Source: Nitrospira japonica (GTDB taxonomy: Bacteria > Nitrospirota > Thermodesulfovibrionia > Thermodesulfovibrionales > SM23-35). Taken from it: 53,289 bases of DNA. A program made the translations under genes and the position numbers. The stretch spans positions 1 to 53,289 of the forward strand of contig DYFC01000021.1 in the NCBI GenBank assembly GCA_020725385.1, read 5' to 3'. The notes under the pieces are model-generated. The model worked only from the letters and a program-made list of their open reading frames with translations, was not told where the DNA came from and ran no database searches. This document shows positions 15,790 through 27,080 of this stretch, one piece after another. Position 1 is the first letter of the stretch; each line of letters begins with the position of its first letter.

Positions 15790-17076
15790 ATGAAGAAATT
15801 AGTTTATATACATACATTTGGTTGTCAGATGAATGTTCATGATTCTGAAAAAATGCTTGGAATCTTGGAAGGGAAGGGCTATCAAGAGACTGATCAGCCT
15901 TCGAAAGCTGATTTAATAATTTTTAATACTTGCAGTATAAGGCAAAAAGCTGAACAGAAGTTTTACAGCGAACTTGGCAGAATAAAATCTTATAAAAAAA
16001 GACATAAAAATCTAAAAATTATTGTTGCAGGGTGTATAGCACAACAAGAGGGGAAAAATATTTTTAAGAAAGCACCACATGTCGATTTTATAATAGGACC
16101 ACAAAATATCCATAATCTCGAAAAAATACAAGATGAAAAACAAGTATTAATTGAAGAAAATGCAGACATAGCAATAAATGATCTTCCTGTAAAACGTAAC
16201 AATAATGTATCTGCATGGGTTACTATAATGTATGGTTGTAATAATTATTGCAGCTATTGTGTTGTACCTTATACAAGGGGCAGAGAAAGGTCTCGTCCGA
16301 GTGAAAATATCTATAAAGAAATAACTGAACTTGCAGCAAAAGGATACAAAGAAATAACACTTCTTGGACAAAATGTAAATTCATATTACAGTGATATTAA
16401 TTTCACGCAGCTATTGAGAAAAATCAATAAAATAGAAGGAATCGTAAGAATTCGATTTGTGACATCTCACCCAAAAGATTTATCAGAAGATTTAATATAT
16501 GCAATTCAAGAGCTTGATAAGGTCTGCGAACACATACATTTGCCTTTGCAATCAGGTTCTGATGAGATACTTGTAAGAATGAATAGAAGATATTCTTTGA
16601 AAGATTATATGAAAAGAGTGAACATGTTAAGAAAAAAGATTCCAGATATATCAATCACTTCAGATATTATTGCAGGATTTCCCGGTGAAAATGAAAGTGA
16701 CCATAGAGCTACTTTGAAAGCTTTAAAAGAAATAGAATTTGATGGTATATTTGCTTTTAAATTTTCACCAAGACCTGGCACAAAAGCGGAAAAAATGGAT
16801 AATCAAATAGATGAAAATATAAAATCTGAAAGGCTTTCTGAAATACTTAGTTTGCAAGATAAAATTACCGAGAAAAAAAATAAATCACTCGAAGGAACTA
16901 TTCAAGAAATTTTAATAGAAGGTTATGACGAATTGAATGTTAATAGATTATCAGGCAGAACCCGTACAAATAAAATAGTTACAATAGATGCATATAACTT
17001 TAAACAAGGCGATATAATCAATGTTTTTATATCAAAGGGGAGAAAACATTCTCTTGAAGGGAATCCTCTGATTTAA
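15790..17076 (+). CDS. miaB: tRNA (i6A37) methylthiotransferase MiaB
   Basis: TFGCQMNVHDSE, NTCSIR, radical SAM CNNYCSYC, VPYTRGRERSR, TRAM domain. Confidence 0.95.
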   Translation: MKKLVYIHTFGCQMNVHDSEKMLGILEGKGYQETDQPSKADLIIFNTCSIRQKAEQKFYSELGRIKSYKKRHKNLKIIVAGCIAQQEGKNIFKKAPHVDFIIGPQNIHNLEKIQDEKQVLIEENADIAINDLPVKRNNNVSAWVTIMYGCNNYCSYCVVPYTRGRERSRPSENIYKEITELAAKGYKEITLLGQNVNSYYSDINFTQLLRKINKIEGIVRIRFVTSHPKDLSEDLIYAIQELDKVCEHIHLPLQSGSDEILVRMNRRYSLKDYMKRVNMLRKKIPDISITSDIIAGFPGENESDHRATLKALKEIEFDGIFAFKFSPRPGTKAEKMDNQIDENIKSERLSEILSLQDKITEKKNKSLEGTIQEILIEGYDELNVNRLSGRTRTNKIVTIDAYNFKQGDIINVFISKGRKHSLEGNPLI

Positions 17077-18314
17077 TGAAAGTTTCAATCCTTACACTCG
17101 GTTGCAGAGTAAATCAAGCAGAAAGTTCATTTATAGAAGGTAATCTAATAAATAATGGAATATCTATAGTTGATTTAAAAGATAAACCAGATTATTGCAT
17201 TATAAATACATGCTCGGTTACCTCAAAAAGTGACTACCAATCAAGACAACTTATCAGAAGAGCTTTAAAAACAGGGTCAAAAGTAATTGTAACCGGCTGT
17301 TATACACATCTTAATTCAGAGAGTATATTAAAAATAAATAAAGAAATTGTAGTTGTGCCTAATAATTTAAAACATAATATAATCAAAATGATAGATGATA
17401 ATATTAAAATTAATAGTTTAAGTTATTCTTTTAACTCACGTCCATATTTAATAATTCAGGTTGGATGTAATAATAAATGTTCCTATTGTATAGTAAGAAT
17501 TGTACGTGGAAAATCAAAAAGTATTCCTATAGAAAAAATAATAGAGCAAATCAAAAATTTCTCTGAATCAGGTTATAATGAAATTGTACTTACAGGTATT
17601 CATATTGGTTCATATGGTCATGATCTTGAACCTAAAGTAAAACTTTCAGATTTAATCAAAACTATCTTAGTTAAAACAAATATTATGCGCATTAGATTAA
17701 GTTCGCTTGAAGTTACCGAGATAGAAGATGAATTTTTAGACATGATGAATGACAATAGAATATGTAATCATCTACATATTCCAATGCAAAGCGGAGATGA
17801 TAAAATACTTAGACTTATGAATAGAAATTACGATACAAGATTTTATTCTTCAAAAATTGAAAAAATAGCGAAAAAAGTTAACAATATAAACATTGGAACT
17901 GATATTATTGTTGGATTTCCGGGTGAGACTGAAAAAGAGTTTTTTAATACGAAAAAACTTATTTCTGATTTACCAATATCTTACATTCATATTTTCCCTT
18001 TCTCAGCTAGAGAAGGAACTCCTGCTTATAACTATAACGAGCAAATAAATAATGTGGAAAAGAAAAAAAGGTGTTTAGAGTTACAATCTATAAATAAAAT
18101 AAAAAAGAAAAATTATTATGAGAAGCAACTCGGAAAAGAATTAAATATTATTATTGAAAAAAAGAATAGTGAAAATTTATATACAGGCACATCAGAGAAT
18201 TTTCTAAAGATCCCTGTCATATCAAGCGATTTGCCTTTAAAATCATGCATAAAATCGAAGATTATACAAAATGAAAAAAACAACCTTATAGGAATCCCCA
18301 TAAACAAAATATAA
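17076..18314 (+). CDS. mtaB: tRNA (t6A37) methylthiotransferase MtaB
   Basis: TLGCRVNQAES, INTCSVT, CNNKCSYC, LTGIHIG, HIFPFSAREGT. Confidence 0.88.
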   Translation: MKVSILTLGCRVNQAESSFIEGNLINNGISIVDLKDKPDYCIINTCSVTSKSDYQSRQLIRRALKTGSKVIVTGCYTHLNSESILKINKEIVVVPNNLKHNIIKMIDDNIKINSLSYSFNSRPYLIIQVGCNNKCSYCIVRIVRGKSKSIPIEKIIEQIKNFSESGYNEIVLTGIHIGSYGHDLEPKVKLSDLIKTILVKTNIMRIRLSSLEVTEIEDEFLDMMNDNRICNHLHIPMQSGDDKILRLMNRNYDTRFYSSKIEKIAKKVNNINIGTDIIVGFPGETEKEFFNTKKLISDLPISYIHIFPFSAREGTPAYNYNEQINNVEKKKRCLELQSINKIKKKNYYEKQLGKELNIIIEKKNSENLYTGTSENFLKIPVISSDLPLKSCIKSKIIQNEKNNLIGIPINKI

Positions 18315-18446
18315 CATATTATAATTTCAGTATATTTTTTCTGCCTAAATCATAATCAAATTCGCTTAATTCTGCAATAGAGATGCCCGTTATATGTTTT
18401 TAAACATAATTAATAACAGTTTATTAACAATCATTGTTAATTTAAT

Positions 18447-18474
18447 ATGTCTGATAAGATATATTATGTAAAAT
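18447..18474 (+). other. dif: dif site (XerC/XerD chromosome dimer resolution site)
   Basis: ATGTCTGATAA-GATATA-TTATGTAAAAT: 11-6-11 layout; the XerD arm differs by one base from the E. coli TTATGTTAAAT. Intergenic location. Confidence 0.85.
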
Positions 18475-19053
18475 AATGAATGTTCTTTTTATTTTTTGTT
18501 ATACTATTACCCTTTTTCCTATATATGAACTTATTAAAAGACAGATAATGAATTTAATCTTTTTAATATGTTACAGATGCTCTTTTTTGTAATTATTCAT
18601 GTTTTTAGTTTAAAATTAATAATTCCTGTATCAAATTCTTATAGCATATGCTTTTAAAATAGAACAATTTATTTTGGAATATTATTTAATCACTTTAAAA
18701 ATTTAATATAATATATTGTAATTTAATAAATAATTTGATTAACTTTAAGAAAATATTTAAAGAACTAAAAATAGACATAATTTTTTTAAATTACTAATTA
18801 ATATTATTGATGTAATATTGCATTAAATATGATAATTTTCTTTTTCAATAAAAATTAAATTTTCTCAAAAATATTAGTTAATAAATCATTTAACTTTAAT
18901 AATATATATTTTTTTAAAGTTATACTTTCAGTTTTTAAATTAGTAGTTCTACTTCCGGATAATATATAGTTATTTTCTATTAATTTCTCATTTTCAATCA
19001 CTATTATCTATTTGTTAAAAAGTATTTAGATTAATAAAAATATATTAAATAAA

Positions 19054-19311
19054 ATGAATAGTTACGCTATAATTACTTTTCATAATTCTCATTTTGCATT
19101 AAAAGCAAAAAGAGTCTTTGATAATAATCGTTTGAAATCAGAAACTATACCTGTACCAAGAGAATTAAGTTCAGAATGTGGTTTCTGTTGTAAAGTTTTG
19201 TGGAAAGATAAAGACTTAGTAGAAAATGTTTTAAAGAAAAATAATATTGCTTATGAAAATATTTATAGATGGGAAGATAAAGCAAAAGGCAAGAAATTTA
19301 ATTTTGTTTGA
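19054..19311 (+). CDS. DUF3343 family putative Se/S carrier protein
   Basis: ITFHNSHFALKA and IPVPRELSSECG motifs; first gene of the yedF operon. Confidence 0.8.
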   Translation: MNSYAIITFHNSHFALKAKRVFDNNRLKSETIPVPRELSSECGFCCKVLWKDKDLVENVLKKNNIAYENIYRWEDKAKGKKFNFV

Positions 19312-19326
19312 AAGAAGGAGGATTTA

Positions 19327-19938
19327 ATGTCTATAGAAATAGATGCAAGAGGGCTACCCTGCCCTCAACCTGTAATTAAAACAAAAGAAGGCTTAGAAAA
19401 AGCTAAAGGAAAAGAATTAGTAATTATTGTTAGCACATCTGAATCAAGGGATAATGTTCTTAGATTTTTATCTCATTCAGGTATAAATATTAATAAAGTT
19501 GAAGAAAATAACGGTTCATTTTATATATATACTGAAAAAACAAATAGAATACCTATAAATGTTGAAAAAAATGAATATATATGTTCAACCTCACAAATAA
19601 ATTTTGGAACGACTATTTTTATTAATAAAGACCGTATTGGACATGGCAATGACGAACTTGGCTATAATCTTATGAAAGCTTTCATAACAACAATTAAAGA
19701 TTTGTCTGTCCAGCCTAAGACTCTATGTTTTATGAATAGCGGGGTAAAACTTACAGTTAATGGGGCTGAAACTATTCCATATCTTAAGAATTTAGAGGAA
19801 AAAGGCATTGAGATTCTTGTATGCGGGACATGTCTTAGCTTTTACAATATCAAAGATAAATTAGCTGTCGGAAAAATTTCGAACATGTATGACATTTCTG
19901 AAACTATGCTAAAATCTTCCAAAGTCATTACTATATAA
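19327..19938 (+). CDS. yedF: selenium-metabolism sulfurtransferase-like protein YedF (TusA + DsrE domains)
   Basis: IDARGLPCPQPVI (TusA CPxP), GxxELG..LM..F, NSGVKL, CGTCL, GKISNMYDI; RBS AGGAGG. Confidence 0.88.
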   Translation: MSIEIDARGLPCPQPVIKTKEGLEKAKGKELVIIVSTSESRDNVLRFLSHSGININKVEENNGSFYIYTEKTNRIPINVEKNEYICSTSQINFGTTIFINKDRIGHGNDELGYNLMKAFITTIKDLSVQPKTLCFMNSGVKLTVNGAETIPYLKNLEEKGIEILVCGTCLSFYNIKDKLAVGKISNMYDISETMLKSSKVITI

Positions 19939-21095
19939 TGAGAAAAAAAGTTGTTTATTTTGATAATGCAGCAACATCTGGAATTAAACCGCCTTCTGTA
20001 ATTAAAGCTATATGTGATTGTCTTAAGAAAAAAAATGCTAATCCCGGTAGATCAGGTCATAGTCTTTCTGTAAAAGCTGCTGAAATAATTTATAGTTGTC
20101 GAGAAAAAATAGGCGAATTATTTAATTTTGATAAGACTGAAAATATAATTCTCACTAAAAATGCTACAGAATCTCTTAATATTGTCATCAACGGTATCTT
20201 AAATACAGGAGATGAAGTTATTACGACTTCAATGGAACATAACTCTGTATTAAGACCATTAACTTATTTAAAGGAAAAAAGGCATATTAAAGTAACGATA
20301 ATTAATGCAGATTTAAACGGTCAGATAAATCCAAAAGACATTTTGAATTCAATATCAGATAAAACAAAACTTATAGTAGTTACTTCTGCATCAAATGTTA
20401 CAGGGACTAAAATGGATGTAGAAAAAATAAGAGAAATCGCTCAATATAACAACATAAAAATTCTTGTAGATGCAGCACAAGGAGCAGGAACAGTAAAAAT
20501 TGATTTTAAAAAATCCCCATTTGATTTTATTGCAATTACAGGCCATAAACATCTTTTTGGACCGCAGGGTACGGGTGCTTTAATTATTAAAAATAATGAA
20601 GAACTTGAACCTTTAATGTTTGGTGGAACTGGAAGTCAATCAGAGAAAATTATTCATCCAGGTTTTTTACCGGACAAATTTGAATCTGGCACGCTTAATA
20701 CGCCCGGTTTTGCTGGATTATCCGCAGGTATTGAATTTATTTTAGGTAAAAAGATTGAAAATATAATCAGCTATGAAAAACAGTTAACAAATTATTTAAT
20801 AAAGAAATTAAAAGAAATTGAAGAAATTACTATATATGCAGCAAATGTAGAAAGAGTATCCACTGTTTCATTCAATATTAACGGATTCCAGCCATCAGAA
20901 GTCGCAGATTATTTAGACAAAAATCATGGAATCTGTGTACGTTCCGGGCTCCATTGCGCACCTGAAGCTCATAAGACCATAAATACATTTCCAAACGGTA
21001 CAATAAGATTTTCGTTGTCATATTTTAATACTAAGGAAGAAGTTGATACCTCAATTAACGCCTTGAAATCATTTATTATCAAAAATAAGAATTAG
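19938..21095 (+). CDS. class V PLP cysteine desulfurase/selenocysteine lyase family protein
   Basis: YFDNAATS, NPGRSGH, DAAQGAG, TGHK (PLP Lys), RSGLHCAP (catalytic Cys). Confidence 0.9.
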   Translation: MRKKVVYFDNAATSGIKPPSVIKAICDCLKKKNANPGRSGHSLSVKAAEIIYSCREKIGELFNFDKTENIILTKNATESLNIVINGILNTGDEVITTSMEHNSVLRPLTYLKEKRHIKVTIINADLNGQINPKDILNSISDKTKLIVVTSASNVTGTKMDVEKIREIAQYNNIKILVDAAQGAGTVKIDFKKSPFDFIAITGHKHLFGPQGTGALIIKNNEELEPLMFGGTGSQSEKIIHPGFLPDKFESGTLNTPGFAGLSAGIEFILGKKIENIISYEKQLTNYLIKKLKEIEEITIYAANVERVSTVSFNINGFQPSEVADYLDKNHGICVRSGLHCAPEAHKTINTFPNGTIRFSLSYFNTKEEVDTSINALKSFIIKNKN

Positions 21096-22966
21096 TTAAT
21101 TAATTGCCTCGTATCTCCCACTCTTTTAGTCAATTTAATAGCATCAAAATACTCAAGAAAATGAATTGCACACTTTCTATTTGTTGGAAAAATATCTTTG
21201 AATTCTCTGACTGTAATAAAAGGTTTTTCCCTGAAAAAGTTTCTCAGATTTTCAAGCCCTTTTTTATAAGAATCTGATTTAACATAAATAGAATTGCTTA
21301 TTTTTATTACTAGACCTTCCTTTTCCATTAATTTCAATATATTTAATATATATTTTTGTTCAATGTTAAGGATTTTGCTTAATTCCTCTATATTAGGTGG
21401 TTCTGTACCTGTTTTATTAAGTATTTGAAGTATTAAATCTTTATTGATTTCATCCTTCTTATTTAATAAAGGTTTAAAAGAAGAAAGTCTAACAATATCT
21501 TTTTCTATATAAATATCTTTCAAAGATGATAAAAGGCTGTTGAATATCTTAACATCTACTTTTATATAATTCCTGAGTTCTTCTTTTGGAATTCCGGGTT
21601 TTATCGGGTTATTTTCATGGTATTCCTTTAACTTTTTTATTATTATATCTTGAAAAATTCTAATAGCTTCAGAATGAAAAATAATATCATCATATTGGTA
21701 AACCAATTGCTTCGACCTCAAATCATTTAAAGATTGATATATTTCGGGTATATCTGCATTTATCCAGCCCTCTAATGTAGATAATCTTATACCATTTATT
21801 GATGTTCTTTTAATTCTTAATGCAATTTTTTCAGCTAAAGTACCATCATCGAAAAAAGTTAACTCATTAATGCTTTTTTGATGACTAATTTTATATGATG
21901 AAGGGTCAAGTATTTCACCTCCACCTATTGTATCAATAGGTGTAACTCTTCTAATTATAAATCTATCACCCGACATTGCAATCACCGGTTCGTTAAGCCG
22001 GAATTGACAATAACAAGTTTCACTCGGTTTTAATTCATTTTTTCCATATAATATAGTCCTTGCAGGTTTTTCGGAAGTACCTATGTGAAAATGTACAATC
22101 TCTCTATTTTTAAGACTTTTTACATGAGATAGTAATGTTACCTTTGCATCGATTTGATATGCAGGAACTAATTTATCAATGTTCACAACAGTATCTCCTC
22201 TTTTTAATAAATCCCTGTCAACTCCCTGAAGATTTATTGCAACTCTTTGTCCTGCATAAGCTTCGTTAACACTTTGACCGTGACAATGTAACCCTCTAAT
22301 TTTAGTTCTTACTTTACATGGGAGAATATCAACTTCTTCTCCAACACTTATTTTTCCAGAAAAAACAGTTCCGGTTACTACTGTGCCGAATCCTTTCAGT
22401 GTAAAAACTCTATCAATAGGCAGCCTAAAAATTCCTTTTGTTGATTTTGGATTAACTTTCAAAGATTCTTGTTTAATTTTCTCTTTCAATAATTCAATAT
22501 TCTTCATTGTGATAGTCGAAACATTAATTATTTCTGAATTTTCAAGAAAGGAGTCTTTTAGAAATTCTTTGACATCTTCTGTTACAAGATCAAGCCAATC
22601 TTTATCGACAAGATCGCATTTAGTAATTGCCACAATCCCTGATTTTATTTTTAAGAGATTGCATATATTAAAGTGTTCAATACTTTGCGGCATAATTCCC
22701 TCATCGGCAGCTACTACGAAAAGTACAATATCTATACCACCTGCACCTGCTAACATATTTCTCACAAGACGTTCATGTCCTGGCACATCTACAATTCCAA
22801 CTGTAAGTCCATTAGTATATTTAAGGTAAGCAAAACCTAAATCAATTGTTATTCCACGTTCTTTTTCTTCTTTTAGTCTATCGGGGTCAATACCTGTTAA
22901 TGCTTTAACTAAAGCGCTTTTTCCATGGTCAATATGTCCTGCGGTACCTAAAATTATATGATGCAT
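21092..22966 (-). CDS. selB: selenocysteine-specific elongation factor SelB
   Basis: [43 protein letters not shown] and full-length winged-helix C-terminus ([12 protein letters not shown]...RVGDTR). Start at MHHIILG, 624 aa. Confidence 0.95.
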
Positions 22967-23003
22967 TTTTTTATAGAAATAAGAATATAAAAACTGTATT
23001 CTA

Positions 23004-23099
23004 TGGAGAGGGGTAGTGGGAATCGAACCCACCATAGCTTCTTGTCCAGAGCATCCACTGGTTTTGCAGACCAGGCGGGGCCCAGCCCCGATACCCCTC
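23004..23099 (-). tRNA. tRNA-Sec-like tRNA with Cys anticodon GCA and U73 (selC*-like tRNA-Cys)
   Basis: Minus strand: GAGGGGTA T CGGGGC-TGG-GCCCCG C CTGGT-CTGCAAA-ACCAG [about 25-nt variable arm] GTGGG-TTCGATT-CCCAC TACCCCTC T CCA. 96 nt, 8-bp acceptor stem, 5-bp T stem. Confidence 0.92.
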
Positions 23100-23123
23100 G
23101 TTTGTATTTTATTATCGATTATA

Positions 23124-23153
23124 ATTATATGTAAAATAGCTTTTTTCTATCAA
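23124..23153 (-). promoter_or_regulatory. putative promoter for the tRNA-selB unit
   Basis: Minus strand TTGATA-18 bp-TATAAT. The AT-rich context lowers significance. Confidence 0.4.
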
Positions 23154-23334
23154 AAGATTATTAAATATAGATTGTTTTTCAATTTTACTAAACAAATTTC
23201 AAACAAGTTTATCAATTTTTCTAATGTCTTATTTTTTTCATATTAGTTTGAATAACAACATTCAGGTTTAATACAATTGACTAAGCAAAGATATTTTTGT
23301 TAACGTATTAAATCAAATCAACTCAGGAGATTTT

Positions 23335-24340: not shown

Positions 24341-25722
24341 GGCTATCAATTCTTGGTGCAGGTCCGGGCGGTTATGTTGCGGCTATAAGAGCTGCACAAT
24401 CAGGAATACATGTTACATTAATTGAAAAAGATGAAGTTGGCGGTACCTGTCTTAATAAGGGTTGTATTCCTACTAAGTCCATAATTGCATCATTAGAACT
24501 TTTTAAAAAAATAAAATTATCAGAACTATATGGTATCGATGTCCCTAACGGCTCAAAACCTAATTTAACCAAGATATTAAATCGAAAAAATAAAATAGTT
24601 CAAACCCAGATTAAAGGATTATACAATATTTTTAAATCGTATAGAATTGATATAAAAAAAGGCAAAGGATTTATATCTTCTCCACAGAGTCTTTTAGTAA
24701 CTTATAATAATGGTGAACAGGAAAAGATTGTTTCTGACAAAATTATTATTGCTACGGGTTCGAGACCATTTCAAATTCAAAATTTGCCGTATGACGGCAG
24801 AATAATAATTTCAAGTGATGATGCCCTGAATTTGCCAGAAATACCAGATGATATTGCTATTTTAGGAGCAGGGGCAATTGGTTGCGAGTTTGCCTGTATT
24901 TTTAGATTACTTGGCTCTAAGGTTACGTTACTCGAAATGCTTTCAAGACCTTTATCTAACGAAGACATTGAAATAACCGATATTTTACAACGCGAATTTA
25001 AGAAAATAGGAATTAGACTTATCACCGGTGTAAAGGTCGAAAAGACTATAGTAGAAGACAATTCAGTTATTATCCATATTGACAATGGAGATATAATTAG
25101 TTCAAAAAAATTACTTATAGCTACAGGCAGAGCTTTCAATAGTGAAAATATAGGGTTAGAAAATATTGGCATAATTAGAAGTCAAAGTGGAAAAATACCT
25201 GTAAATGAAAAATTTGAGACAAATATAAAGGGTATTTATGCAGTAGGTGATGTTATTGGGAATATGATGCTTGCACATGTTGCAGCCCGAGAAGGTATAA
25301 CTGCTGTGGATAATATTCTTGGCAATAATTCAACAATTGATTATAATTCTGTACCTTTGGTAATTTTTACATATCCAGAAATTGCATCGGTTGGGTTAAA
25401 GGAATTTCAAGCACAAGAGAGAGGAATTAAAATAAGGACAGGACATTTTCAATTTAGAGCACTTGCAAGATCCCATACTATAGGGGAAATTGATGGGCTG
25501 GTTAAAATAGTATCTGATGCTGATTCAGATAAGTTACTCGGGGTACATATTATTGGTCCTCATGCCTCTGATATTATTCATGAGGCAGCTTTAGCTATCA
25601 GAAAAGGGTTAAAAACTAAAGACATCATAGAAACTATCCATGCACATCCAACATTTTCAGAGGCAATTATAGAAGCAACTGAAGATATATATGGCATGGC
25701 TATACATGCTATTAAGAAATGA
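24337..25722 (+). CDS. lpdA: dihydrolipoamide dehydrogenase
   Basis: GAGPGGYVAA, GGTCLNKGCIPTK, HAHPTFSE. Confidence 0.95.
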   Translation: MRLSILGAGPGGYVAAIRAAQSGIHVTLIEKDEVGGTCLNKGCIPTKSIIASLELFKKIKLSELYGIDVPNGSKPNLTKILNRKNKIVQTQIKGLYNIFKSYRIDIKKGKGFISSPQSLLVTYNNGEQEKIVSDKIIIATGSRPFQIQNLPYDGRIIISSDDALNLPEIPDDIAILGAGAIGCEFACIFRLLGSKVTLLEMLSRPLSNEDIEITDILQREFKKIGIRLITGVKVEKTIVEDNSVIIHIDNGDIISSKKLLIATGRAFNSENIGLENIGIIRSQSGKIPVNEKFETNIKGIYAVGDVIGNMMLAHVAAREGITAVDNILGNNSTIDYNSVPLVIFTYPEIASVGLKEFQAQERGIKIRTGHFQFRALARSHTIGEIDGLVKIVSDADSDKLLGVHIIGPHASDIIHEAALAIRKGLKTKDIIETIHAHPTFSEAIIEATEDIYGMAIHAIKK

Positions 25723-27080
25723 TAAATAATTTTCAGCAAGACTGGCTAACCGAATCAAGAAAAAAACATTGGGAACTCTATTCTGAACTTAATGTACTTT
25801 TAAGAGCAGTTGATAGATTTTTTCATATAGATAATCTTAATATTTCTCAGAACGAACTTCCAGTGAAAAATTTTTATAATGAAATTAACTCATTACGTGA
25901 TGTTATCTTCAGAATACTCGCTATTTTTGAAGTAATTATTCCTGAAAATAAAAAAAATGCTTTCTGGTTCCAGAAGTATGCTGAATCAAAATTCTTTAGT
26001 TATTACACAAGAGATATTTTGAAAGAAAAGCTTTATAGTCAGGACTCTCCGGAAAAAAGCATCTTTTTAATGTATGACCTATTTATAAATTTAAAGGGGA
26101 TTATTACTGAATTGCTTAAATCAGGCGAAATACAATATAACAGCTTTATTAATATAGGACAGATTATAAGCAAAGAAATTAGAGGAAATAAATTTTTAAA
26201 CCCTTTCCATAAGGAAATAAGTCCTGAATTTGATACTATTAATAATCCTCCAATTACTGAGATCGTCAAAAAAATTAAAGAACCTGAAATCAAAAAGAAT
26301 ATATCCCTCATATATATTTATTTCTTCAGATTTTTAAGATTTCTCAAACATATTGATATTTCATCAAATGACACTATTTCATTGAATTCATCACTTTTAA
26401 TCTTAATCATGTTAAAGTCCGAATTAGATTTATTCCGGAATTTCTTAAAGAGAAATGCTTTATCAATTAAAAATGAGGAAATAAAATCATTATTAAATCT
26501 TATTTCGTATCAACTATCAATGGAAACCAAAAGGGTCTTTAATCAAGAATTAAAAGATATCTTTCAGAAAGAAAATGCGGATAATTTAAGAGGTAAAATC
26601 GAAAACAGCAAAGGTATTTTGAATAATCTAATAGAGCAAAGCATACTACAAATTACACAATACTTTAACAAAAATATTCAAGGAGAGGACATTTTTCCCA
26701 ACTTTATTGATAAATTATCTCAATCTATAAAACTCAGAGAAGATATATTTACACTTCATAGGTTTATAACGTTACTTGAAGAACAAGCTGCTGTGCCTGA
26801 AGTTGGTAGGGATATCTTTAAAGGAATGAAAAATTATATGAAGGATTTTCAACATTCTACATTTAGTCTGTTACGTTATGACGACTATAATGAATTCGCT
26901 GAGTTTTTTAATAAAATTTTTAATCTTCAATGGTTAGAGCAAGACCAAATATTAAAATTAACAAAAAGTTTTAAGATATACATAGAAACAACATTAAGAA
27001 ATATTGCTAATCGTTCTGAATTAAAAAATATATCCTTCGATGTAGATAAAGTTGAAGCAAATTTAAAAAAATATATATAA
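25719..27080 (+). CDS. hypothetical all-alpha protein
   Basis: 453-aa ORF coupled to lpdA by an ATGA overlap; no motif recognised. Confidence 0.6.
   Translation: MINNFQQDWLTESRKKHWELYSELNVLLRAVDRFFHIDNLNISQNELPVKNFYNEINSLRDVIFRILAIFEVIIPENKKNAFWFQKYAESKFFSYYTRDILKEKLYSQDSPEKSIFLMYDLFINLKGIITELLKSGEIQYNSFINIGQIISKEIRGNKFLNPFHKEISPEFDTINNPPITEIVKKIKEPEIKKNISLIYIYFFRFLRFLKHIDISSNDTISLNSSLLILIMLKSELDLFRNFLKRNALSIKNEEIKSLLNLISYQLSMETKRVFNQELKDIFQKENADNLRGKIENSKGILNNLIEQSILQITQYFNKNIQGEDIFPNFIDKLSQSIKLREDIFTLHRFITLLEEQAAVPEVGRDIFKGMKNYMKDFQHSTFSLLRYDDYNEFAEFFNKIFNLQWLEQDQILKLTKSFKIYIETTLRNIANRSELKNISFDVDKVEANLKKYI

Follow-up and report, generated by a model that had tools for sequence, protein, structure and literature searches.

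A selenium-trafficking gene trio beside a selC*/tRNAReC-type tRNA and its selB paralogue in a Thermodesulfovibrionales genome

This study concerns a 53,289-nucleotide stretch of DNA (the window), namely positions 1 to 53,289 of contig C15 (DYFC01000021.1) in assembly GCA_020725385.1 (genome G000), which is catalogued as Nitrospira japonica and belongs to the order Thermodesulfovibrionales. Its subject is a locus at which a three-gene operon for a DUF3343 protein, YedF and a NifS-like desulfurase converges on a selB gene and on a tRNA that has the shape of a selenocysteine (Sec) tRNA and the cysteine (Cys) anticodon GCA. Both modules are of kinds already described. Judged by family profiles and motifs, the trio is a known SelD-linked set for the mobilisation and trafficking of selenium or sulfur (Se/S), and the selB/tRNA pair matches, in its sequence features, the published selC*/tRNAReC-selB* pair. 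We consider it probable (about 0.65) that two known selenium-economy modules stand side by side here, as neighbours through a recurrent selenium neighbourhood and not through chemistry on the tRNA.

The trio comprises three plus-strand open reading frames (ORFs) packed head to tail as one operon, with only terminal stops in their translations and no in-frame TGA. They encode an 85-residue DUF3343 protein, a putative Se/S carrier (19054..19311; PF11823, 73.6 bits, cut-off 25), YedF with TusA-like and DsrE-like domains (19327..19938; TIGR03527, 209.8 bits, cut-off 110; Pfam TusA and DsrE), and a 385-residue class-V, group-II NifS-like pyridoxal-phosphate (PLP) enzyme of the cysteine desulfurase/selenocysteine lyase family (19938..21095; TIGR01977, 461.5 bits against 377; Aminotran_5, 328.6 bits). 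On the minus strand lie selB* (21092..22966; 624 residues with GTPase, D2 and D3 domains and all winged-helix domains; TIGR00475, 384.6 bits, cut-off 242.25) and the tRNA (23004..23099; ARAGORN and Rfam RF01852), whose end is 38 nt from the selB* start codon. This start is placed at the ATG at 22966 and not at 23035, because the longer ORF runs into the tRNA. The desulfurase stop TAG (21093-21095) and the minus-strand selB* stop TAA (21092-21094) interlock, so that the two ORFs share the four nucleotides 21092-21095. Families were assigned with Pfam and NCBIfam profiles, bit scores being read against the cut-off of each model, and tRNAs with ARAGORN and Rfam. An earlier note on this DNA had described the three families, their operon free of in-frame TGA, the RSGLHC loop of the desulfurase and the four-nucleotide overlap with the convergent selB stop, and coordinates, profiles and translations bear out all of this. 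The locus itself is also confirmed as observed, because short contigs from four public runs belonging to three studies carry the same junctions and show no alternative joints; these contigs cross the point where the two stops overlap, join the tRNA to the start of selB, and run from the upstream spacer through the genes for DUF3343, YedF and the desulfurase.

The assembly comprises 2.46 Mb in 71 contigs, the smallest of 5,155 bp, and is 96.6% complete with 34.7% G+C. It was compared within a set of 31 genomes of the same order, itself included, covering 26 genera. Those cited most below are the sister species G005 (same genus, 98% complete), used as reference for the ratio of nonsynonymous to synonymous substitution rates (dN/dS); three further members of the genus, G001, G002 (81% complete) and G003 (in 460 contigs); and the further relatives G006 and G015. 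A third, close assembly, G031, contains a 7.2-kb contig (C76) that matches the window. This assembly is titled 'Candidatus Woesearchaeota archaeon', and positions 1-7166 of C76 are 93% identical to window positions 16178-23185 with equal gene order; C76 is probably a mis-binned bacterial contig.

The tRNA is typed as tRNA-Cys(GCA) by ARAGORN and as tRNA-Sec by Rfam (57.7 bits; gathering threshold 47), and the Rfam alignment gives it a tRNASec-like fold, in which the acceptor stem (8 bp) and the T stem (5 bp) form a 13-bp branch, the D stem has 6 bp and the variable arm is long. Its anticodon loop is CUGCAAA with A37, its discriminator base is U73, and the CCA is encoded (3′ end CCCCTC-T-CCA). 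The combination of U73 and GCA on a tRNASec scaffold defines the selC* tRNACys of Mukai et al. 2017 (PMC5389517), a class shown in that study to be cysteinylated. The supplementary table of the same paper (PMC5389517) includes selC*(GCA) of three Thermodesulfovibrio species, with which the window tRNA shares the anticodon arm and the 3′ end. A 2026 paper (PMC13582414) equates selC* with tRNAReC and defines the class by a length of at least 80 nt, a UCA or GCA anticodon and a discriminator U, a definition that covers both the tRNAReC of Desulfotomaculum nigrificans and the window tRNA. The same source states second-hand, citing work of 2018, that tRNAReC decodes UGA as Cys given a downstream Sec insertion sequence (SECIS), and calls the division of work between tRNASec and tRNAReC unclear (PMC13582414). 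Across the comparison set, ARAGORN typed 13 selC*-type tRNAs in 10 of the 31 genomes, all of which keep U73 and GCA; four further Rfam matches are untyped and four others are tRNA-Ser(UGA). Every examined genome with the variant tRNA, G000 included, also has a normal selC(UCA).

These features bear on a different view of the tRNA, namely that it is a genuine tRNASec, though its anticodon reads sense codons, charged by seryl-tRNA synthetase (SerRS), converted by SelA and delivering Sec at UGC/UGU codons with a SECIS, as reported for some Actinobacteria. Retention of the long variable arm, of the D stem of 6 bp and of the 13-bp branch would suit such a tRNA, as would the presence of selA in the genome; species of this kind are mentioned in PMC7609411, and U73 with a long variable arm can fit SerRS (PMC5389517). 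However, U73 and GCA are the main identity elements for cysteinyl-tRNA synthetase (CysRS), the class is cysteinylated (PMC5389517), and both elements persist in all the typed copies, so that we regard a Sec-charged tRNA as very improbable.

The name selB* denotes a second selB downstream of selC*, reported in PMC5389517 for Syntrophobacterales and Desulfobacterales. The selB of the window is likewise a paralogue, because a second, canonical selB is present on contig C52; the two are 58% identical. A quick maximum-likelihood tree (IQ-TREE, 26 sequences, with support from the Shimodaira-Hasegawa-like approximate likelihood-ratio test, SH-aLRT, only) places all six tRNA-adjacent SelB copies and one paralogue from genome G007 in a single clade within this family (SH-aLRT 98), in which the branch of the G000 and G005 copies is long (0.49; the remaining tRNA-adjacent copies have 0.08-0.33). 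The aminoacyl-pocket residues R30, F45, D185, R186, H229 and R241 (Aquifex aeolicus numbering; PMC4605307), mapped through a PDB alignment, are invariant in all 26 SelB and SelB* sequences, position 186 being counted as basic. Only nine positions distinguish the paralogue clade from canonical SelB, and the last winged helix holds three of these. A dN/dS of 0.090 against G005 indicates purifying selection on selB*. With the pocket invariant, the clade differences few and selection purifying, SelB* looks like a working, little-changed SelB, which would suit a role in carrying an aminoacyl-tRNA of tRNASec shape with a thiolate or selenolate to a SECIS. The residue beside the pocket histidine H229 is changed from serine to cysteine (S228C) in the SelB* of G000 and G005 only, the other 24 sequences having serine.

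Comparison with the system of Mukai et al. (PMC5389517) shows agreement in the U73/GCA tRNA of tRNASec type, in the selB just downstream and in the coexisting canonical set. The published selB* genes belong to Syntrophobacterales and Desulfobacterales and accompany modified tRNAs of 8/4 type, whereas the window comes from Thermodesulfovibrionales and has an 8/5 tRNA; moreover, the tree suggests that SelB* copies of the window type arose by duplication inside the family. The paper also records selD in all its isolate genomes, whereas none was found in G000 (PMC5389517). A further difference concerns the carrier of the tRNA, for which the window has a dedicated paralogue. An ordinary SelB reportedly carried tRNAReC in the work of Vargas-Rodriguez et al. 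(2018, RNA Biol).

The proteins of the trio carry the cysteines expected of their families. The DUF3343 protein has the motif TIPVPR..SSECGFC, and its C42 and C45 are invariant in an alignment of all seven orthologues; YedF contains CPQP in its N-terminal, TusA-like part and CGTC in its C-terminal, DsrE-like part, the latter corresponding to the CGXC motif named for YedF in PMC5322559. The desulfurase translation shows the PLP lysine in GHK and the loop RSGLHCA, which fits the group-II consensus RXGXHCA (10.1101/2020.02.07.939272), and K204 and C340 are invariant in six orthologues. All three genes appear to be under constraint against G005 (dN/dS 0.111 for the desulfurase, 0.088 for YedF and 0.194 for DUF3343). 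The cluster described by Lin et al. 2015 (PMC5322559) has the same three families, the same YedF motifs and the conserved DUF3343 cysteine; it differs from the window in that selD is missing here from both the locus and the assembly and in that the cluster here abuts selB*/selC*, and the accessible text of PMC5322559 makes no mention of a variant tRNA near such clusters. The characterised Enterococcus faecalis selenocysteine lyase SclA (EF2568; 10.1101/2020.02.07.939272) is also a group-II protein with RXGXHCA, and TIGR01977 is the family named after EF2568. The window enzyme, unlike SclA, falls below the exception-level cut-off of the SclA-specific model NF040779 (334.3 bits against 525) and is therefore not an SclA orthologue by that criterion. 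As the earlier note held, the three families are selenium-linked. The TIGR03527 type of YedF, about 200 residues long, occurs in genomes that carry SelD and typically adjoins selD; this feature is lacking in G000 and present in G002, G003, G006 and G015, and since the assembly is incomplete, the missing selD is not conclusive against it.

The earlier note had proposed in addition a tRNA-dependent Se/S relay, in which SelB*-bound Cys-tRNA would be the substrate of the desulfurase. Only the physical adjacency and the four-nucleotide overlap of the convergent stops speak for it. The enzyme, however, is a full-length member of a free-amino-acid desulfurase family (385 residues against the 376 positions of TIGR01977) without an extra domain, and on the two models of SepCysS, which is tRNA-dependent, it reaches no more than 48.4 bits where 301 is the cut-off and 38.4 bits where it is 365.25. 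Moreover, the trio stands beside selD without an adjoining selB* in G002, G003 and G015, and since the genes converge, the trio and selB*/selC* are not co-transcribed. Nothing in the sequence points to a desulfurase acting on Cys-tRNA, and we give this part of the earlier proposal hardly any credence.

Elsewhere in the genome, the canonical Sec machinery is retained. A tRNA-SeC(tca) gene, the canonical selC(UCA), lies at C13:40092-40185 (72 bits), selA at C52:27274-28623 (628.5 bits) and the canonical selB at C52:14706-16574. Both selA and the canonical selB are intact in G000 and G005 and under strong purifying selection (dN/dS 0.078 and 0.074, at dS 0.55-0.64). The suggestion that the Sec machinery has been retooled for cysteine thus stands for the Cys identity of the tRNA, with U73 and GCA, but not for the apparatus as a whole, which was duplicated while canonical selA, selB and selC were kept. 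Similarly, the absence of selA and selD from the locus holds throughout the window, but at the level of the genome it fails for selA, and selD was not found in the assembly.

Candidate selenoprotein genes were sought as TGA codons with coding-like frames on both sides, which gave 94 candidates, 55 of them left after those lying before a ribosome-binding site and start codon were dropped; 20 of the 55 frames were then checked in Pfam with TGA read as U. Six genes have a Pfam domain that spans the in-frame TGA. Two encode alpha subunits of formate dehydrogenase (FdhA; C27:11709-14783 and C27:32846-35563), in which the TGA lies within the domain and the 70 nt from the TGA have predicted folds of -23 and -20.9 kcal/mol, respectively. 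The others are an AhpC/TSA peroxiredoxin with TGA at the peroxidatic position (C45:33359-34081), a methyltransferase (C26:19590-20384) and two less usual candidate selenoproteins, namely an RnfB-like Fe-S protein with TGA in its first cysteine cluster (C31:134473-135621) and a DUF1573 protein with TGA in an S-U-G-C motif (C41:11187-11555). The remaining 14 frames were rejected, being adjacent genes in one frame or having no domain across the TGA. The genome is thus credited with at least five and probably six genes that have an in-frame TGA, and this gene content indicates that the organism uses UGA-SECIS recoding. The genome-wide inventory that the earlier note had proposed therefore yields selA, canonical selB, selC(UCA) and five to six TGA genes, and lacks selD.

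The case for a shared selenium neighbourhood rests on the distribution of the trio and of selC*. Close YedF orthologues (at least 61% identity) occur in 7 of the 31 genomes, and in five of these seven trio genomes (G000, G005, G001, G006 and G015) a selC* is found no more than about 20 kb from the trio; in G002 the trio is beside selD and only the canonical selC was detected, and G003 has the trio and no tRNA-Sec match. Co-occurrence of the trio with the variant tRNA, which the earlier note had put forward as a test, is thus partial. The note had also reasoned that the same neighbourhood in relatives with a normal selC(UCA) would speak against its proposal; such a neighbourhood exists beside selD in G002, yet five of the seven trio genomes have selC*. 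A wider survey searched species-representative genomes for the conserved pattern of anticodon arm and T arm that marks this kind of tRNA and found 73 selC*-type loci in 69 assemblies, whose record titles give Nitrospirota, Nitrospirae or Thermodesulfovibrionales except for two, one 'Bacterium' and one Woesearchaeota. Within 2 kb on either side of each locus, selB starts 35-75 nt past the end of the matched pattern in 12 loci, one of these selB genes being a remnant, a member of the yedF family with 30-51% identity to the window YedF is present in 21, mostly within 300 nt downstream and on the same strand, and selD is present in five, so that 36 of the 73 loci carry at least one of the three. 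The chance that any of three single-copy genes lies within 4 kb of a tRNA in a 2-3 Mb genome is well under 1% by an estimate rather than a computed control. The arrangements are of several kinds, namely tRNA-selB*, tRNA-yedF and tRNA beside selD, which suggests that the linkage has been retained repeatedly, and because 36 of the 73 loci carry selB, the yedF family or selD, the adjacency of trio and selC* is best read as reflecting a recurrent selenium-utilisation neighbourhood. A Pfam scan of the nearest ORFs (131 ORFs) found LysR-type regulators at 10 loci, transglutaminase-like proteins at 13 and HgdD or activase proteins at 12. A wider list of neighbours (LysR, transglutaminase-like, HgdD/activase, rhodanese and TusA) adds 15 loci and brings the count to 51 of 73; most of these families, rhodanese not among them, are YedF/DUF3343 partners according to Lin et al. 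2015 (PMC5322559).

Several points weigh against the reading of two neighbouring selenium modules. The wider list was drawn up after the results had been seen, 37 of the 73 loci have no selB, yedF or selD within 2 kb, 22 have no selenium-linked neighbour at all, and the counts include related genomes, so that the observations are not independent. The trio directly abuts selB* in one genus only (G000, G005 and G031, with G001 through an inferred contig join). Finally, no selD scores above the cut-off in the 96.6% complete assembly of G000, where the profile finds only ThiL, HypE and PurM, and none was found in the sister species G005 either.

The upstream flank invites another explanation, in which the trio is a general sulfur relay, for instance for MiaB and MtaB or for other thiolation, and its proximity to selB*/selC* is functionally irrelevant. 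Immediately upstream of the trio, outside the module but in the same orientation, lie miaB (tRNA ms2i6A37 methylthiotransferase, 15790..17076; TIGR01574, 495.1 bits, cut-off 355.3) and mtaB (tRNA ms2t6A37 methylthiotransferase, 17076..18314; TIGR01579, 402.7 bits, cut-off 357.05). DUF3343 proteins also occur in organisms without SelD (PMC5322559), which would agree with the failure to find selD in G000. Yet miaB and mtaB adjoin the trio only in the near-identical lineage of G000, G005 and G031, whereas in G001, G002, G003, G006 and G015 the trio is beside selD or YedE-type genes; furthermore, YedF scores as a selenium-linked equivalog, and selC* is linked to the yedF family in the 21 loci given above. 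A sulfur relay of this kind therefore seems to us quite unlikely.

The missing selD requires separate consideration. A tblastn search of the whole G000 assembly with the SelD of a relative gave only ThiL and PurM-type matches, while selD is above the cut-off in 29 of the 31 genomes, nearly all with one in-frame TGA, the exceptions being G000 and G005. The gene is divergent to DUF3343 and about 130 bp upstream of it in G002 and G003, follows selC* in the order selD-DUF3343-YedF-desulfurase in G015, and lies 2.6 kb from the trio in G006. The place beside DUF3343 is taken in G000 and G005 by a spacer of 739-771 bp, which in the window is the non-coding interval between mtaB and DUF3343 (18315..19053; 739 bp, 16% G+C). 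No selD remnant was detected by tblastn in the G000 spacer (best E 0.81), and C76 of G031 is collinear with the window across the selD site, at 93% nucleotide identity, without selD; hence selD is no longer at its ancestral site. Between G000 and G005 only the ends of the spacer are conserved (82% over 194 nt and 78% over 89 nt). In G000, counterparts of the selD-flanking genes of G002, G006 and G015 are found inside contig C60 and on C48, and neither place gave a SelD match.

These observations could mean that the lineage has truly lost selD and makes no Sec, that selC*/selB* reads UGA-SECIS as Cys and that the trio moves sulfur only; the long SelB* branch of G000 and G005 and the failure to find selU in G000 would also fit. 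Against such a loss, selA and the canonical selB are intact and constrained, which would be unexpected if Sec synthesis had ended in the ancestor of G000 and G005. In addition, size filtering could have removed a short contig bearing selD, because G000 has no contig below 5,155 bp and selD contigs in the genus are as short as 2.6 kb (G001) and 2.0 kb (G003). Moreover, G001 shares the arrangement of trio, selB* and selC*, as inferred from two contigs abutting inside selB*, and still has selD elsewhere. We consider loss of this kind unlikely, and selD is probably unassembled rather than lost. There is also a slim chance that the lineage (G000, G005 and the G031 contig) is truly SelD-less and nonetheless keeps selA, selB, selC and six UGA-SECIS genes under selection. 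An absence of selD, if true, would be the more surprising result: it would imply either SelD-independent activation of selenium, for which the adjacent relay of Sec-lyase-type enzyme, YedF and DUF3343 would be the candidate donor, or a naturally occurring organism in which the selC*/selB* pair makes every selenoprotein codon read as cysteine. In genome G012 (C5; L037:5332-6340), a selD beside selC* is split over two frames, with AIRS and AIRS_C on separate ORFs, through either a frameshift or a pseudogene.

Under the preferred reading of two adjacent selenium modules, the group-II PLP enzyme would take selenium (or sulfur) from free Sec or Cys onto the cysteine of its RSGLHCA loop as a perselenide or persulfide and hand it to the cysteines of YedF (CPQP and CGTC) and DUF3343 (C42/C45), which would carry it to an acceptor, normally SelD. 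CysRS would charge the selC* tRNA, as expected from the published class, and SelB* would bring the Cys-tRNA to UGA-SECIS sites, leading to the insertion of cysteine. The selC*-selB* unit may thus back up, or complement, Sec insertion through the canonical selA, selB and selC encoded elsewhere, acting on the same UGA-SECIS genes. We infer these biochemical steps and the direction of Se/S flow. The co-location fits a shared role in the selenoprotein economy that combines selenium supply and salvage with a cysteine fallback, and the LysR-type neighbours found at other loci suggest that the trio and the selC* unit may share regulation.

Three aspects are possibly new: the tRNA-adjacent selB paralogue in Thermodesulfovibrionales, derived from a duplication inside this family; the frequency with which selC* is physically linked to genes of the yedF family, to selD and to genes of LysR type; and the missing selD in this lineage. 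No publication linking yedF, DUF3343 or selD with tRNACys, tRNAReC or selC was found in a body of literature that excludes the 2018 tRNAReC paper and the figure supplements of the 2017 study. The locus extends tRNA-adjacent selB paralogues past the two deltaproteobacterial orders of PMC5389517, and the repeated position of selC* beside selenium-trafficking and regulatory genes raises the prospect that the cysteine fallback switches with selenium supply and salvage.

Some further features were recorded. A promoter-like site (TTGATA-18-TATAAT, 11 of 12 matches in a consensus scan) lies on the minus strand at 23124..23153, about 25 nt upstream of the selC* tRNA; such sites are no commoner than in shuffles of the region, and the site gives only a hint that the tRNA and selB* might form one transcription unit. 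Downstream of the gcvH-lpd genes, the window contains a 453-residue ORF (25719-27080) that matches no Pfam or NCBIfam model. G001 has a second selC* on contig C29 (L041:1171-1475), followed by an 86-residue ORF that corresponds to the last winged-helix domain of SelB only, that is, a truncated selB*, and then by a DUF3641 radical-SAM gene, a CMD-family gene and dksA-gcvH-lpd. Besides its CysRS gene (C21:49416-50861), G000 has a gene for a truncated CysRS-like protein (C47:26045-27271; L168:5046-6275), which reaches 321.8 bits on the cysS model, short of the cut-off of 340, and 169.7 bits on MshC, adjoins a phosphohexomutase-like gene and is not near selC*. This paralogue was considered as a dedicated CysRS* and set aside; it occurs in 12 of the 31 genomes, six of which are among the 10 that carry selC*. 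The protein might act as a ligase that joins cysteine to a small molecule, or as an enzyme resembling a CysRS*.

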